Counted from the first letter of the stretch, positions 2,672 to 9,442 are shown. The stretch: 9,442 nt of DNA from a virus (IMGVR_UViG_2548876961_000016), one strand, 5' to 3'. Notes: a model not told the origin generated them from the letters alone. Numbers and translations are program-made.

Positions 2672-2681
2672 CCCCCCCCCC
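2672..2681. repeat. Homopolymeric tract C10 (G10 on the coding strand) 4 nt after the ATG at 2688
   Basis: Supported independently by both ORF-track translations (MTWGGG... on minus, ...LPPPM on plus). Confidence 0.8.
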
Positions 2682-2684
2682 ATG

Positions 2685-2846
2685 TCATTGCTCACCGAGT
2701 AACGAGATCAGGCCTTCAACTTCATTACTCAGCTTGTTTATTCGTGTCTCAAGCTCTGCGATCTTTTCCATCAATGGCGCTATAGTGTCTCTTGTTTCCT
2801 CGCCAATGGCCTTAATGATGCTTGCCTCGCGTTCTGTGATAGCCAT
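2685..2846 (-). CDS. Hypothetical small coiled-coil-like protein (53 aa), not in the ORF track
   Basis: My translation: MAITEREASIIKAIGEETRDTIAPLMEKIAELETRINKLSNEVEGLISLLGEQ. The ATG is 3 nt after the upstream stop with GGTGAGG about 8 nt upstream; its TGA overlaps the ATG at 2688 (ATGA). Confidence 0.4.
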   Translation of the reverse strand: MAITEREASIIKAIGEETRDTIAPLMEKIAELETRINKLSNEVEGLISLLGEQ

Positions 2847-3770: not shown

Positions 3771-5519
3771 TTATAAAAACGCGTCACAATCATCCGTTGT
3801 AATTGCGTTGGTCTGCGTTACTCCCTTAACTTTTCGCGTAATATATTCATGTCCGTAAACTTTCGCCGCTGGCTTCATGGCCTTGCTGAAATCAGCCACG
3901 TTTAGCGGCTTGCTTCTTCCTGCGTATGCCATAAACGCCAGATAGACGCGGTAAAGGCTGTTTCTGGTCGTGTACTTCACGGAATCGCCACCGCCACCCA
4001 TCATCAGGCCGCGCGCTTCCTCCAGAAAATTCAGGAACTGGCAAAACTCAATAACCGGATCTGTCTGTTGCTTTATCGCCAGTGCTTCATCACCGTCGCG
4101 CTGTTCCAGTAATAAAGCCCGTGCCTTTTCAGGGTCAGCAAAATTAGCCAGCAAGCGGCGGATAATCACAGGGATTTCAGCCGCGACCTTCTCCGGCAAA
4201 TCCTTGTCCTTTTCTGCCTCGCTAACGATATTGTCAAAGCGAAAAATAACCCGACGACGTGCCACGCCTCCGGCCCGTTCGGTGAATATCATCGGGTTGT
4301 TGTTGGTCGCCAGCACCACCGCCCTGATTACCGCCGTGAAACGCTTTTCATATTTCGGGTTAATTTCCACGGGGTCGCCGCCCGTGATTTTCTTGATGCC
4401 CGTTCCTTCGCCTGTATATTTCGGCTGGTCAGCCAGGACGATAAGACGACTCCCGACAACCTGCGCGCGCCCTCCTGCATCATCGAGTGATGTCATCTCC
4501 GCGCTTACGGTGTTCTGTTTCCCTGCCAGAAGGCTGGCTATGTGTGTGAATGTACTTTTACCGCTCCCGCCGTCTCCGGTGGCCTCAATAAACATCTGCC
4601 AGTCGTACCGGTTCGCCATAATCATGTACAGCGCGGCACATATACGCATCATCTTGCGCGGGTCTTTTCCGGCTGCGTGCTCAAGCCATTTATGAAAGTT
4701 TGGCGCGTTGTCGCGAATGTTCTCCCCTGGTGCTGGTGGCGTGTACTCAATGCCGTTGTGCGTGGTGATCCAGTTCTCCGGCGTGTGCGGGGAAAATTCC
4801 CCCGTTTTCAGGTCAAGTGCACCATTGGCGAACGGCAGCAAATCGCCGGACGGCTCCCCCATTGGTTCGGCAATAACTTTTAACGCTTCAACGGCGTTAT
4901 TGATCACGCGTTTGCTGAAAGTGGCCCTGTGCTCTGAATAGATCGCCACCATTTCGCGGCTAAGTTCCATTGTGCTGACCGGACACCATACCCCGCCGCG
5001 CCATACGTGAACGATTTCACTTTCAGGATGTACGCAAACGCCATCAAAGCGATCGGCAAGCAGCTGGGCGCGCTCACTGTCTGCCATTTGTGCCAGTTGC
5101 GTATTTTTCTGCTCCGGCATGGTAAGCCCTGCGGCAATATTTTCACGCTCAGCATTCAGATAGCGCCGCCAGTTTTCACACTTCTGACCGTGCATTCCTT
5201 CGGGGTAAAATTTTGCATCCTGTACGCCTGCCGCCGCCAGCTTCTGACCAATCTTTTTGGTCTCCACCAAGTCCAGTTCTCCTGCCTGGTACAGCCTTAC
5301 GCGTTTTTTTCCATCAGGAACAATTTGCAGTGCATAAAGTTCGGCAAGCTGATTTGGCCCAAGCCACACAGGAGGCACATTATCGCCGGATGCGGGGCCG
5401 TCCTGCTCCTGCCACTGTTTTGCATGTGCCCACGCATCACTACCCGCGAAAATAATCACCTCTGTGTCTTTGTGTTTTATTCCGCGTGGCTGTTTTTTTA
5501 CGTTCGGTGCCAGTTTCAT
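3771..5519 (-). CDS. Replication initiation primase/helicase (phage/plasmid primase, P4-family C-terminal NTPase type)
   Basis: 582-aa ORF with Walker A GDGGSGKST at residues about 315-323 and a candidate Walker B (RLIVLADQ). Its size and its position upstream of an iteron array match satellite and P4-like Pri/Rep or alpha proteins. Confidence 0.85.
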   Translation of the reverse strand: MKLAPNVKKQPRGIKHKDTEVIIFAGSDAWAHAKQWQEQDGPASGDNVPPVWLGPNQLAELYALQIVPDGKKRVRLYQAGELDLVETKKIGQKLAAAGVQDAKFYPEGMHGQKCENWRRYLNAERENIAAGLTMPEQKNTQLAQMADSERAQLLADRFDGVCVHPESEIVHVWRGGVWCPVSTMELSREMVAIYSEHRATFSKRVINNAVEALKVIAEPMGEPSGDLLPFANGALDLKTGEFSPHTPENWITTHNGIEYTPPAPGENIRDNAPNFHKWLEHAAGKDPRKMMRICAALYMIMANRYDWQMFIEATGDGGSGKSTFTHIASLLAGKQNTVSAEMTSLDDAGGRAQVVGSRLIVLADQPKYTGEGTGIKKITGGDPVEINPKYEKRFTAVIRAVVLATNNNPMIFTERAGGVARRRVIFRFDNIVSEAEKDKDLPEKVAAEIPVIIRRLLANFADPEKARALLLEQRDGDEALAIKQQTDPVIEFCQFLNFLEEARGLMMGGGGDSVKYTTRNSLYRVYLAFMAYAGRSKPLNVADFSKAMKPAAKVYGHEYITRKVKGVTQTNAITTDDCDAFL

Positions 5520-5820: not shown

Positions 5821-6081
5821 TTATTCTCCGATAGCGTGACCTGATAAGCCGTTAATCTTCTCTGATGTGCTCTCTATTTTGCTGGTGGAAATATTCAGTA
5901 ATTCAGAAATGGCAAAGGTTAATCTTGTCGTTGACTCGTCACGCTCGCAATTTGTCAGCGATTCAAACCAGACGTTAATAATCTCACTTACGGCATTGTT
6001 GTAAGATATTGCGCTTTGTGTGAGTTCATTCAATTCGCAAATTACGCGTTTGTTATTGTTCATAGCGTTTAAATCTCTCAT
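5821..6081 (-). CDS. Hypothetical small protein (about 80-86 aa; start at ATG 6081 or 6063)
   Basis: The ORF track starts at TTG 6084; in-frame ATGs follow at 6081 and 6063, neither with a strong RBS. Asn/Ser/Ile-rich. It overlaps the upstream ORF end and its stop sits in the RBS of the next gene. Confidence 0.4.
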   Translation of the reverse strand: MRDLNAMNNNKRVICELNELTQSAISYNNAVSEIINVWFESLTNCERDESTTRLTFAISELLNISTSKIESTSEKINGLSGHAIGE

Positions 6082-6244
6082 CAATTAACCACAGCGCAAC
6101 ACTTCCAGAAAGTTTTGCCAGAAGGCCAGCTAATGCGGATATATCACCATCATTTAATTTATTAGGGTACACCTCAAGAAGTCGGCAAATAATTTCTGTC
6201 TGGTGCGCACGTTCAGCGGCTTCGTGTAATGTAATTTCCTTCAT
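6053..6244 (-). CDS. Hypothetical small protein (63 aa)
   Basis: ATG start overlapping the upstream stop (TAATG), in a same-strand run of tightly packed small ORFs. Sequence MKEITLHEAAERAHQTEIICRLLEVYPNKLNDGDISALAGLLAKLSGSVALWLIDERFKRYEQ has no family I recognise. Confidence 0.45.
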   Translation of the reverse strand: MKEITLHEAAERAHQTEIICRLLEVYPNKLNDGDISALAGLLAKLSGSVALWLIDERFKRYEQ

Positions 6245-6474
6245 TAATGCCCCCCCCCTTTTAATTCATGTACTGCTGCAATAATTACATGTGATAAACC
6301 TGCTTTACCGGAATTACTGATTACTGAATCAATCGCCGCTTGCATATTAACGGCCTTCACGTTCTGCGTGATGCCAACGGTATAGCCGCGCTTGTTAACA
6401 GCACGGGAAAAAACGCGGAAGGTTTTAAGCACGGCACACCCCCTGACGAATACGGGCGACAAATACAGCAACAC
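6244..6474 (-). CDS. Hypothetical small protein; start uncertain (GTG at 6474 or ATG at 6345 giving 33 aa)
   Basis: ORF ends ...HELKGGGH, with GGG GGG GGG encoded by a 9-nt G tract. Its stop overlaps the next gene start (TAATG). The ATG at 6345 has an AAGG 9 nt upstream. Weak support overall. Confidence 0.25.
   Translation of the reverse strand: MLLYLSPVFVRGCAVLKTFRVFSRAVNKRGYTVGITQNVKAVNMQAAIDSVISNSGKAGLSHVIIAAVHELKGGGH
6250..6258. repeat. Homopolymeric tract C9 (G9 on the coding strand) at the junction of two small leftward ORFs
   Basis: Encodes GGG at the end of ORF 6244..6474, immediately before the overlapping stop/start TAATG. Confidence 0.8.
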
Positions 6475-6628
6475 AACCTGACGGGCAACGGCTACGCGCT
6501 TCGCGTTCCGTCCAGGCGGTTACGTGGATGATTTGAGATTCTCCGGCACTCAGGGCCAGAAAACGCCAGATGTATTTATTCAGGTTGTGCGAGTCCCGCC
6601 CTTGCGGGTGTGTGGTATGATTTAACAT
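6425..6628 (-). CDS. Hypothetical small protein (67 aa), possible first gene of the leftward operon
   Basis: Internal ATG within the long 6425..7123 ORF (MLNHTTHPQGRDSHNLNKYIWRFLALSAGESQIIHVTAWTEREARSRCPSGCVAVFVARIRQGVCRA), preceded by GAGGT 4-5 nt upstream. The longer upstream extension crosses the divergent promoter region and is antisense to the plus-strand gene, so it is unlikely to be coding. Confidence 0.3.
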   Translation of the reverse strand: MLNHTTHPQGRDSHNLNKYIWRFLALSAGESQIIHVTAWTEREARSRCPSGCVAVFVARIRQGVCRA

Positions 6629-6818: not shown

Positions 6819-6998
6819 ATGGCAACAGGTTCAACAAATAATAAGTCGCAACAGTTAAATGCCAGATTCCCGCATGATGTTGTTGCAGACTTAGAAAAAA
6901 ATTTAGATGAAGGTGAAAGCAAAGCGCAATTTATAGTTACTGCCGTTAAAGGCGAAATCAAACGCCGCCAGCGCCGCAAGGCCAAAGAGCAGGAATAG
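6819..6998 (+). CDS. Small putative DNA-binding protein (ribbon-helix-helix-like), candidate regulator
   Basis: 59-aa ORF from the internal ATG at 6819 (MATGSTNNKSQQLNARFPHDVVADLEKNLDEGESKAQFIVTAVKGEIKRRQRRKAKEQE), preceded by GAGAGG 8 nt upstream. The GTG at 6780 in the ORF track has no RBS. The strand/helix/helix pattern and basic tail are RHH-like by eye only. Only plus-strand gene in the window. Confidence 0.5.
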   Translation: MATGSTNNKSQQLNARFPHDVVADLEKNLDEGESKAQFIVTAVKGEIKRRQRRKAKEQE

Positions 6999-7132: not shown

Positions 7133-7357
7133 CTACGCTGCCTTACCTGAATTAATACGATCCCGGCTTTTAACCCATTCCATAACCTCGGAAAGCAGCC
7201 AACCTACTGAACGACCACCCAGATTACGGCGTGACGGGAAATTCCCTTTTTTCTCCAGTTCGTAGCGTGTAGTGCGGCACACTCCTGTTAACTTACGGCA
7301 TTCATCCTCACGGATTACGCGATCTGATAGTGATTGAAATTGTGTATTTTGATTCAT
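7133..7357 (-). CDS. alpA: AlpA-family (Phage_AlpA / Vis-like) HTH transcriptional regulator
   Basis: 74-aa ORF. Core RVIREDECRKLTGVCRTTRYELEKKGNFPSRRNLGGRSVGWLLSEVMEWV matches the AlpA-family pattern (l..ev...tGlsrst.y.l...g.FP.p..lg.r.vgW...ev..W). Its position downstream of the integrase matches CP4-57-like elements. Confidence 0.85.
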   Translation of the reverse strand: MNQNTQFQSLSDRVIREDECRKLTGVCRTTRYELEKKGNFPSRRNLGGRSVGWLLSEVMEWVKSRDRINSGKAA

Positions 7358-7453: not shown

Positions 7454-8222
7454 TTTTACGTTTTTGTTGAGATTCACGCCCCAAATACTTTTGCCATGTC
7501 TGCCAATGTGTTTTTGGAAATTCTATCCCTCTGGATGCAGCTATAGAATCAATTAAATCTGCTATTTTAGGTAATGATTCCGTGTCCAGGTCTACATCAC
7601 CCATTTCTGGAATAAGTTTAATTAAAGAGTAAATAACCTCATTCCTTTTTGACGATGCTTTTGGGCTATCTTCTGTTATCTTCGGGAAGTCTCCCGTATT
7701 TTTTATATTATCTAAATCACTAGCCATCACACACAAATAGTTAACATCAAATTCATAACCACCCTTACAAAAAACATACATGAGATTATCATCACCATAC
7801 TTATTCGTAAGATGAGAACATTTTATATATTGTCTCATGCTAAATTCGACATCAGCAAAAACATATGCCGGAGTATAATAAAACCCTGATAAGCTGCTAA
7901 CATAATAACATTTGATAGAATTCCCTACAGGACCAATAATGGCACTATCTAAAAATTCAGTGTCACCAGTTAAACCAACTGTAAAATTACTTCCAAAAAC
8001 AGCAGATTCATCATTGAAAGGATATTTTATTAATTCTTCCTCATTACAACCATTGATAAAATGACATAATGAAAAATTGAATTTTTTAGCATCAATTTTT
8101 GGTATATATACAGAAATATTAAGAGCACCTATATATGCGTAATGATAAAGATCTTTTATTGCACAGCCTAACTTTTCTGCCGCTTCAGGTAACGGATAAT
8201 AGAGTCTTTTAGGTAATTTCAT
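7449..8222 (-). CDS. Hypothetical protein, AT-rich cargo gene in the int-alpA slot; N-terminal HTH-like segment, remainder unrecognised
   Basis: 257-aa ORF whose start overlaps the integrase stop by ATGA. Residues 5-35 (LYYPLPEAAEKLGCAIKDLYHYAYIGAL) resemble an excisionase/MerR-like helix-turn-helix; the rest is Tyr/Phe/Asn-rich with no motif I recognise. G+C looks much lower (roughly one third, by eye) than flanking genes (about half). Followed by a hairpin plus U-tract (7358-7392). Confidence 0.65.
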   Translation of the reverse strand: MKLPKRLYYPLPEAAEKLGCAIKDLYHYAYIGALNISVYIPKIDAKKFNFSLCHFINGCNEEELIKYPFNDESAVFGSNFTVGLTGDTEFLDSAIIGPVGNSIKCYYVSSLSGFYYTPAYVFADVEFSMRQYIKCSHLTNKYGDDNLMYVFCKGGYEFDVNYLCVMASDLDNIKNTGDFPKITEDSPKASSKRNEVIYSLIKLIPEMGDVDLDTESLPKIADLIDSIAASRGIEFPKTHWQTWQKYLGRESQQKRKK

Positions 8223-9442
8223 TTGGCCACCTTCAGCATAACAATATTTTCATGATTTCCAGCCAGCACATCGAGGCGCTCAACCCATAGATTAAGAGCG
8301 TCACGTTTTGCATCAAGATAACGGGAGTGATTATAGACTCGTTGCATTCCTGGCAACTGGTGCGCGGTAAGCTGCTCCACAACATGCGGTTCCACGCCTA
8401 AATCGTTCAGCATCGTTGTAAACGTGTGCCGGATGTCGTGCAACGTCCAGGGGGCTTGATTAATGCGTCTGTGTGCCGTTCTTCCGTACTCTGATACGGA
8501 TGATTGCCCTTTCAGTTCTCCGAGCAATAAGCCCGTGTGCCTGTTCTGCTCCACCAGCTTCATGACAAACGGCAAGATCGCTTCCGGTATTGGCCTGAAT
8601 ATTGCTACCTTCGTTTTGCTGTGTTCTTTCGGCACGGTCCAGAGCATTTCTTTAAAATCCCATTCCTGGACCTCAGAGCGTCTTAGCTCAGTGGTACGAC
8701 ATCCGAAGACAATCAGGAGGCGAATCAGGGCGCTGTAGTACGGTGGGTAAATTTTTTCATCAAGGGCGCGTAGTAATTCCCCAAGCTCCTTGTTTGTTAG
8801 TACGCGCTCGCTTATTTCTGCTTTTTTCCCAACATCACCGACAACCATATCATCAAGAACGTTGCTGATTGCGTATCGTCGTTTTCGGCAGTACTTAAGC
8901 GCCTGTTTGCATACCTGTAGCAAAAATCCGGCTGATACCGGATTACGCTTAGCAAGCTGGTCAAAACAGGCCAGCCAGTGGCGTAGCTCGCATTTTTCCA
9001 GTGGCATAGCTCCAATCTGGCTAATTATGTGTTTATTGATCCGGCTTTTCAGTGATTCGTAGTCAGTGCGCTTTTCCTTTGCGTACGATTCAAGCCAGTA
9101 AGTGAGCGCTTCCTTAACCGTCACGGGGGCTAACGCGTCCTGTACAGCATGATTAAGTTCATAGCGCGGATTTTTCCCCTCAGCCAGCCATGCGCGACAT
9201 TGCGACGCTTTTTCCCTGGCTGCTTTCAGGCTCAAATCTGGATAATTTCCCAGCCTCAGACGTTCAGGTGATATCTGCCTACCAGTTCCGGACCTGTAAG
9301 TGAAATACCAGGTTAACAGGCCATTGGTTGAATGCCTTACGCTAAGGTTGCCACCATCATTAAAAAAGGTGCTTTTTGTGGTTGGTGATCCGCTTAATTT
9401 TCGTAAAAGAGTGTCGCTAAGTCTATGAATTGCCCTGCTCAT
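8219..9442 (-). CDS. int: Tyrosine site-specific integrase (P4/CP4-57-type phage integrase family)
   Basis: 407-aa ORF. C-terminal catalytic region has the His-x-x-Arg box (LHDIRHTFTTML) and a tyrosine-containing tail (RVYNHSRYLDAKRDALNLW); an upstream Arg box is present (FGCRTTELRRSEV). The ATG is on the last bases of the window, so promoter, att site and any longer N-terminus are not visible. The stop overlaps the next gene start (ATGA). Confidence 0.9.
   Translation of the reverse strand: MSRAIHRLSDTLLRKLSGSPTTKSTFFNDGGNLSVRHSTNGLLTWYFTYRSGTGRQISPERLRLGNYPDLSLKAAREKASQCRAWLAEGKNPRYELNHAVQDALAPVTVKEALTYWLESYAKEKRTDYESLKSRINKHIISQIGAMPLEKCELRHWLACFDQLAKRNPVSAGFLLQVCKQALKYCRKRRYAISNVLDDMVVGDVGKKAEISERVLTNKELGELLRALDEKIYPPYYSALIRLLIVFGCRTTELRRSEVQEWDFKEMLWTVPKEHSKTKVAIFRPIPEAILPFVMKLVEQNRHTGLLLGELKGQSSVSEYGRTAHRRINQAPWTLHDIRHTFTTMLNDLGVEPHVVEQLTAHQLPGMQRVYNHSRYLDAKRDALNLWVERLDVLAGNHENIVMLKVAK

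Follow-up and report, generated by a model that had tools for sequence, protein, structure and literature searches.

The run of nine G residues at the junction of two small genes, ORF1 and ORF2, in an Escherichia coli phage-inducible chromosomal island (PICI) is best explained, with good confidence, as a mutational hotspot born of the Shine-Dalgarno (SD) sequence of the downstream gene, with outcomes that are for the most part tolerated, rather than as a site of programmed recoding or a conserved contingency locus. The run (6250..6258, minus strand; C9 on the plus strand) lies in a stretch of 9,442 nucleotides, the whole of which is here called the window. Among its relatives G6, G7, G8, G9 and G10 alleles occur and natural fusion proteins of 125 or 126 aa exist, in line with the variation in tract length that the original prediction had suspected. 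The evidence does not support a designed fusion or switch, the conserved state in the related loci being a non-repetitive SD between separate genes.

The island and its early operon

Judged by its gene content, the window is an E. coli PICI of ~9 kb situated between cspD and clpS. Integrase, AlpA, primase-replicase and a terS/capsid homologue are found together in one small island without tail or lysis genes, and the gene set and its order match the Gram-negative PICI layout as given in PMC6092414; int, alpA, pri-rep, the terS-like gene and the capsid homologue are shared with the EcCICFT073 type described there, a likeness of gene content. The passages of that paper on alpA, O157, capsid, terminase and cos make no mention of ORF1, ORF2 or G tracts. 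In the PGAP and Pfam annotation the integrase (Phage_integrase, 8219-9442) is followed by a 257-aa ORF, AlpA (Phage_AlpA, 7133-7357), a small YlcI/YnfO-family gene (6819-6998), an icd-like gene upstream of ORF1 in the same operon (6425..6628; NF033153, E 1.4e-17), ORF1 and ORF2 themselves, an 80-aa ORF, a DUF4222 gene, a D5-type primase (D5_N/DUF5906, 3771-5519), three small ORFs listed between primase and terminase, terS (Terminase_2 small subunit, 2065-2553) and an HK97-type capsid homologue (Phage_capsid, 979-1902), all on the minus strand save the YlcI/YnfO-family gene, which is on the plus strand. The early operon runs from alpA through the icd-like gene, ORF1, ORF2, ORF3 and the DUF4222 gene to the primase. 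Overlapping stop/start junctions are frequent in it, and most of its genes have a G-rich SD 4-8 nt before the start codon.

E. coli strain MA11 matches the window at 99.9% identity; the two differ by four substitutions and by a second G tract that is G10 in the window and G8 in MA11, the first tract being G9 in both. No complete genome searched is identical to the window.

Several repeats and motifs elsewhere in the island were observed alongside the G tracts. The non-coding DNA of ~1 kb between the capsid homologue and clpS holds nested direct repeats (271-964), among them an 88-nt repeat at 314-401 and 851-938 with 95% identity, a 47-nt repeat at 504-550 and 558-604, and motifs of the form CCCGATATGG(T/G)GATCCCCA; no Rfam match was found in this region, and the repeats may be att or REP-like elements. 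GTAAC-T-rich units (GGTGTAACTTTT...) occur at 2321-2358, inside terS, where they encode KKVTKKVTEKVT, and at 2575-2600, a short way upstream of terS; they might be repeats to which terminase or a regulator binds. EcCICFT073-type PICIs are reported to have lambda-like cos sites (PMC6092414). A search of the window for the lambda cosN 12-mer gave a near-match with one mismatch, GGGCGGCGACCC, at 4372-4383 on the minus strand inside the primase gene; this was the sole near-match, there was no such motif near the second G tract, the total number of matches was that expected by chance, and a cosN at the second tract was accordingly dropped.

The ORF1/ORF2 junction

ORF1 (6244..6432, minus strand; PGAP WP_000920688.1) encodes 62 aa from a GTG start and begins MLKTF; ORF2 (6053..6244, minus strand; WP_000659213.1) encodes 63 aa. 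The two belong to separate PHROG families, PHROG 3672 (phrog_3672, E 1.6e-26) and PHROG 1478 (phrog_1478, E 6e-34), with profile lengths of 61 and 63 positions respectively. The original prediction had ORF1 begin further upstream, as a 76-aa frame covering 6244-6474, and this start was misplaced: the frame from 6474 is merely the longest open one, and the N-terminus that begins at GTG 6432 is identical across all 49 related loci and is also the PGAP start. The GTG has GGGGGTG in front of it and is overlapped by the stop of the icd-like gene by 8 nt.

At its other end ORF1 reads AAA GGG GGG GGG CAT TAA TG on the minus strand, so that the G9 run supplies the codons of Gly59-Gly61 and the product ends ...KGGGH-stop, as had been predicted. 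The TAATG overlap occupies 6242..6246 on the minus strand (ORF1 TAA 6246-6244, ORF2 ATG 6244-6242), with the ATG of ORF2 beginning on the final base of the ORF1 stop, and the G9 run stands where the SD of ORF2 would be, 5 nt ahead of the ATG and inside the last codons of ORF1. With its stop/start overlap and a predicted SD placed within the upstream gene, the arrangement is that of a translational-coupling junction. Edits made in silico agree with the prediction that one G more would fuse the two ORFs and one G fewer would truncate: at G10 the frame continues as ...KGGGALMKEIT... into a 126-aa fusion with the 63-aa ORF2, and at G8 it continues as ...KGGGINEGNYITRSR-stop. The ORF1 stop falls 11 codons further on at G8 or G5, and G7, which is frame-equivalent to G10, gives an ORF1-ORF2 fusion of 125 aa.

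That two G tracts in the window exceed chance was likewise borne out. In dinucleotide shuffles of the window 0.04 G/C runs of at least 9 are expected, three overlapping matches (two tracts, the second of them real and located at 2672-2681) were observed, and one shuffle in 200 equalled this count.

Structural predictions bear on how much a change in the run would alter the proteins. The confident AlphaFold model of ORF1 (pLDDT 90) is a beta-beta-alpha-beta domain that ends at residue 57, followed by a KGGGH tail predicted to be disordered, residues 60-62 (GGH) having pLDDT below 50; since the Gly codons lie in this disordered tail, gaining or losing a Gly should be of no consequence. ORF2 is modelled as a two-helix hairpin (pLDDT 94.5), for which a fold search returned generic helical hairpin matches and none of significance. 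The nearest folds to ORF1 are the ribosomal LX/eL20 N-domain, and these are weak (TM ~0.8, E 2.5e-3 to 0.1); a still weaker likeness to T7 Gp2 and to the RNAP-binding protein YkzG was also seen. The predicted fold of ORF1 hints, as a weak lead, at a nucleic-acid or RNAP-binding role. No functional assignment was drawn for either protein from these folds, the matches being generic (E ~1e-2 for ORF1). Against PHROGs both proteins matched families of 'unknown function' only, and neither had a match in Pfam, NCBIfam or the PDB sequences.

Probable origin of the tract from a Shine-Dalgarno sequence

Comparison with 49 related viral-contig loci from IMG/VR suggests where the run came from. The junction is AAAGAGGTGCATTAATG in 44 of the 49, encoding ...KEVH-stop at the end of a 61-aa ORF1, and the genes are separate; GAGGTG in these loci is a canonical SD placed 5 nt before the ORF2 ATG. 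The TAATG overlap itself (TTAATG or GTAATG) is present in 46 of 49, the exceptions being L005 and L006, in which the ORF1 stop lies 4-5 nt upstream, and L010, a G8 locus that reads through. Forms that stand between the non-repetitive SD and the long run also occur: strain F6321 has the intermediate GGGGTG (KGVH-stop), and G4/G5 forms are found in L005, L009 and L050. Predicted pairing with the anti-SD is similar across the variants, ~-11 kcal/mol for G5-G11 vs -10.2 for GAGGTG, and the SD function of the G-run is plausibly retained, with several registers possible on a long run. As part of the hotspot reading, and with the same good confidence, the run is regarded as the SD of ORF2 turned into a homopolymer through two substitutions, A to G and T to G, followed by expansion.

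The same change appears one junction upstream. Where the icd-like gene meets ORF1 (CAGGGGGTGTGCCGTG), the SD of ORF1 contains a G5 run (6439..6443, minus strand), reading CAGGGGGTG in the window vs CAGGAGGTG in most relatives (CAGGAGGTGTGCCGTG before ORF1), that is, AGGAGG has become AGGGGG. In another lineage, P0012 is an Icd-ORF1 fusion by way of ...QGGGVMLKTF. The claim that the placement of G tracts at junctions is more than chance can thus be divided: the statistics stand, and the cause is mundane, since G tracts fall at junctions because SDs are there (GAGGTG to GGGGGG).

Length polymorphism among relatives

The tract is polymorphic among homologous elements and not fixed between separate genes. 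Among 38 complete E. coli genomes there are 18 with G6, 12 with G7, 7 with G9 and 1 with G8, lengths that are implied by alignment spans and confirmed by sequence in 12 cases, and of which single ones from long-read assemblies may be errors. The closest complete-genome group accounts for 18 G6, 12 G7 and 1 G9, to which a sub-lineage adds 6 G9 and 1 G8; MA11 has G9, Z1814 G7 and strain 9000 G6. These differences arise on nearly invariant flanks: Z1814 (G7) and 13E0780 (G6) are separated by 0 SNPs over ~1150 nt of flank, and 1 SNP sets MA11 (G9) apart. A second G7 group (2014C-3061, O103:H2 FWSEC0007) is 9-10 SNPs away and lies 5 SNPs from a G6 strain. By parsimony, these sequences hold several tract changes on a background with almost no substitutions.

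Allele counts, for products with the same 58-aa ORF1 body, were taken from an exact-sequence look-up across ~15 billion proteins. G6 was found on 717 contigs, the KGV-stop product (G4) on 659, the exact 62-aa G9 product on 233, G8 on 75, the 125-aa G7 fusion on 65, a G7 fusion into an ORF2 with a nonsense codon (75 aa) on 211 and the G10 fusion on 2; G5, G11 and G12 products were found on 0 contigs in the same look-up. The counts are phylogenetically non-independent and can do no more than suggest an excess of lengths divisible by three. Their sources span many laboratories, projects and platforms (NCBI, Logan, IMG isolate assemblies), and the polymorphism, taken as a whole, is therefore no artefact of assembly.

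Clonal sets share a single length: seven strains from one UK study (Z1615, Z1723, Z1766-Z1769, Z1811) are all G6, as are three FRIK strains, and four 25-0xxxx/LB858871 strains are G9. The G7 fusion allele is present in 12 of the 38 complete genomes, across O157:H7, O103:H2 and O121, and is therefore not strongly counter-selected; from its persistence it could even be useful. In G7 and G8 genomes PGAP keeps ORF2 and marks ORF1 'incomplete'. Loci L062, L063 and L064 (strains 472, OkiPb01693 and 61_150228) were observed to have a nonsense codon in ORF2 (MKEITLHEIAERA-stop) together with G9, G8 and G7 respectively, and the sub-lineage with this internal stop and G7/G8/G9 looks, from its sequences, like one in decay or under relaxed constraint. 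Elsewhere in E. coli O157:H7, length polymorphism of an A8 run has been reported in espW (PMC12078548).

Fusion products

Natural G7 and G10 fusion alleles exist. The ORFs are separate in 44 of 49 related loci, and no fusion was found among 41 clusters of distant homologues. The latter result comes from a profile of the natural fusion proteins, searched with HMMER against 1.84 billion (1.84e9) representative proteins, in which all 41 matches cover one half only, either ORF1 (positions 1-60) or ORF2 (64-130). ORF2-type matches are mostly stand-alone proteins of 47-87 aa (~29 homologue clusters), and a few ORF1-type matches lie within longer proteins, P0040 (247 aa) and P0055 (101 aa); a further profile match was to a repetitive 1355-aa protein. 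A scan of genome contigs with the fusion alignment gave no confirmed relatives. Taken together, the distribution suggests that the fusion alleles are recent, recurrent and sporadic, not conserved, and points to their being tolerated.

Further G tracts

The second tract (G10, 2672..2681, minus strand; C10 on the plus strand) lies in the spacer between a 53-aa ORF (2685-2846, minus strand) and terS, beginning 3 nt beyond the stop codon of the former and ending 118 nt upstream of the terS ATG (2553). In relatives it is G7, G8, G9, G10 or G11 with no regard to frame, as would befit an intergenic spacer in which length is unconstrained. Within the one UK study Z1766 and Z1769 have G10 vs G9 in Z1767, a difference that reflects either very high mutability or long-read error. 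A GTG directly after the tract shares the frame of terS, which is open from there to the terS ATG. A 207-aa extended terS (ATG 2688) was considered and rejected: it is in frame at G10 only (the window and L068) and not at the G7, G8, G9 or G11 of relatives, and because it is out of frame at these other lengths it is treated as an accident of length. A promoter role was likewise dropped after a promoter scan around the tract yielded no sigma-70-like site.

A G9 directly before an ATG (AAAATGGGGGGGGGTTATGCGT) was also observed in L053 (8173-8181) and L054 (8172-8180), which are related islands at the yejO locus of E. coli O111 11128 and JNEC-KY171 with a RepA-helicase replication module. The gene at this G9 is annotated 'frameshifted' by PGAP.

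Proposed mechanism and alternative explanations

Under the hotspot reading, two point substitutions (GAGGTG to GGGGTG to GGGGGG) would have given a homopolymer still able to pair with the CCUCC of 16S rRNA, and replication slippage on the run would then produce alleles from G6 to G10. Lengths divisible by three (G6, G9) would add or remove one Gly in the ORF1 tail and keep the TAATG coupling, G7 and G10 would read into ORF2 and give the 125/126-aa fusion, and G8 (and by prediction G5, observed 0 times in the look-up) would lengthen ORF1 by 11 codons, taking it past the start of ORF2. Every length allele would keep the full predicted ORF1 domain as well as the SD and ATG of ORF2, the C-terminus of ORF1 alone changing; because ORF2 keeps its own SD and ATG in all alleles, those that are out of frame are probably tolerated or mildly deleterious.

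A more purposeful reading, that of an adaptive contingency locus in which the PICI would keep slippery junction G-runs as bet-hedging against helper phages or the host, with separate, fused and truncated forms of ORF1/ORF2 and altered spacing upstream of terS maintained in the population, seems unlikely. In keeping with it, near-identical strains do differ in repeat length (G6/G7/G9 on flanks 0-1 SNP apart), the tract has changed faster than SNPs accumulate around it, G6/G7 changes having arisen independently at least twice, the fusion allele holds steady from one serotype to another, and four G-runs stand at or next to junctions in the element family (the G9, G10 and G5 described here and the G9 of L053/L054), a recurrence that could reflect selection for mutability rather than shared mutational bias. 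Homopolymer runs are known to mutate ~1000-fold faster than point sites, with frameshift rates raised to a like extent, and have been proposed as general regulators (PMC2831843). Against this, the repeat is not maintained across the gene family, 44 of 49 relatives having the non-repetitive GAGGTG with G4/G5 intermediates alongside, and there is no clear ON/OFF state, for no allele would remove the predicted folded domain of ORF1 or the start of ORF2. The agreement in length within clonal groups (seven Z-series strains and three FRIK strains at G6, four 25-0xxxx/LB858871 strains at G9) argues against rapid switching, and the one sub-lineage that pairs tract variants with a nonsense codon in ORF2 looks like decay. 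The broader proposition that SD-derived poly-G runs at icd/ORF1, at ORF1/ORF2, in the spacer upstream of terS and at the G9 of the yejO relatives together act as heritable, reversible dials is quite doubtful. Were it true, early-operon forms (separate vs fused ORF1-ORF2) and packaging-gene expression would be diversified in an arms race with helper phages.

Two other accounts are far less probable. In programmed recoding, the ribosome would shift into the -1 frame on G GGG GGG, or RNA polymerase would slip, and G9 or G6 would thereby yield a set fraction of fusion beside both separate proteins. Relative to ORF1, ORF2 does lie in the -1 frame, no stop codon interrupts the fusion frame, and the run, which itself resembles an SD, would let tRNA-Gly re-pair perfectly; the -1 frameshift of dnaX is stimulated by an upstream SD-like sequence. 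The canonical heptamer, by contrast, is X XXY YYZ, in which Y is normally A or U, and G GGG GGG does not conform to it. Folding of the 113 nt that follow the run is less stable than that of their shuffles, with a minimum free energy of -16.7 kcal/mol vs a mean of -21.3 (z = +1.47), which speaks against a downstream stimulatory structure, and no Rfam match was found there; the slippery site is absent from most of the 49 related loci, and no conserved fusion product was found. In E. coli transcriptomes, moreover, homopolymer insertions occurred only in A or T runs and never in G or C (PMC5574713). With this balance recoding is very improbable. Equally remote is an assembly artefact, in which the true length would not be G9 and the polymorphism would be homopolymer sequencing error, a caution that the original prediction had itself raised. 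Homopolymer miscalls are common in long-read assemblies, the second tract is G10 in Z1766/Z1769 and G9 in Z1767 within a single study, and the window is 2 Gs off MA11 at that tract. But MA11 and six further complete genomes also have G9 at the first tract, the exact G9 product is present on 233 contigs, the G7 and G8 products come from numerous projects and platforms (65 and 75 contigs respectively), and the clonal sets agree at the first tract.

Relation to known systems and implications

The hotspot reading places the junction beside several known systems without making it identical to any. It resembles the 'translational coupling' clusters of GeneTack (PMC3711429) in its TAATG overlap, in the SD 5 nt upstream within ORF1 and in the apparent frame transition, and departs from them in that the SD has become a 9-nt homopolymer of variable length, sometimes with a true fusion or an extended ORF1; within that scheme it would class as a translational-coupling junction to which a phase-variation-like repeat has been added. 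With the slipped-strand loci of Neisseria, Haemophilus and Campylobacter, and with the poly(A) of Listeria inlA (PMC2831843) and the A8 of espW (PMC12078548), it shares a mononucleotide run and +/-1 frame changes between close relatives. Unlike those contingency loci, it shows no ON/OFF of a surface or virulence gene, the tract sits at the very 3' end of ORF1, the start of ORF2 is left intact, and the tract is recent and not family-conserved. Likeness to the programmed -1 frameshifting or transcriptional slippage that gives fusion proteins in dnaX, the IS3/IS1 transposases and the G/GT of phage tail chaperones lies in a second ORF in the -1 frame, a slippery run and a possible fusion, whereas here the site is not conserved, there is neither a stimulatory structure nor a conserved fusion, and the run is of G and not of A/T.

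To our knowledge no contingency locus has previously been described in a PICI, and a literature search for one found no report. Should tract length prove to be selected in satellite-helper conflict, the present tract would then be the first. Junctional G-runs are nonetheless not to be read as designed switches: their origin in SDs explains why they stand exactly at gene junctions in such elements, and tract variation explains the 'incomplete' and 'frameshifted' pseudogene flags that PGAP places on small PICI genes in some strains. More broadly, the ORF1/ORF2 junction offers a worked example of how a ribosome binding site inside an upstream gene mutates to a homopolymer and thereby gives rise to a gene fusion/fission polymorphism.
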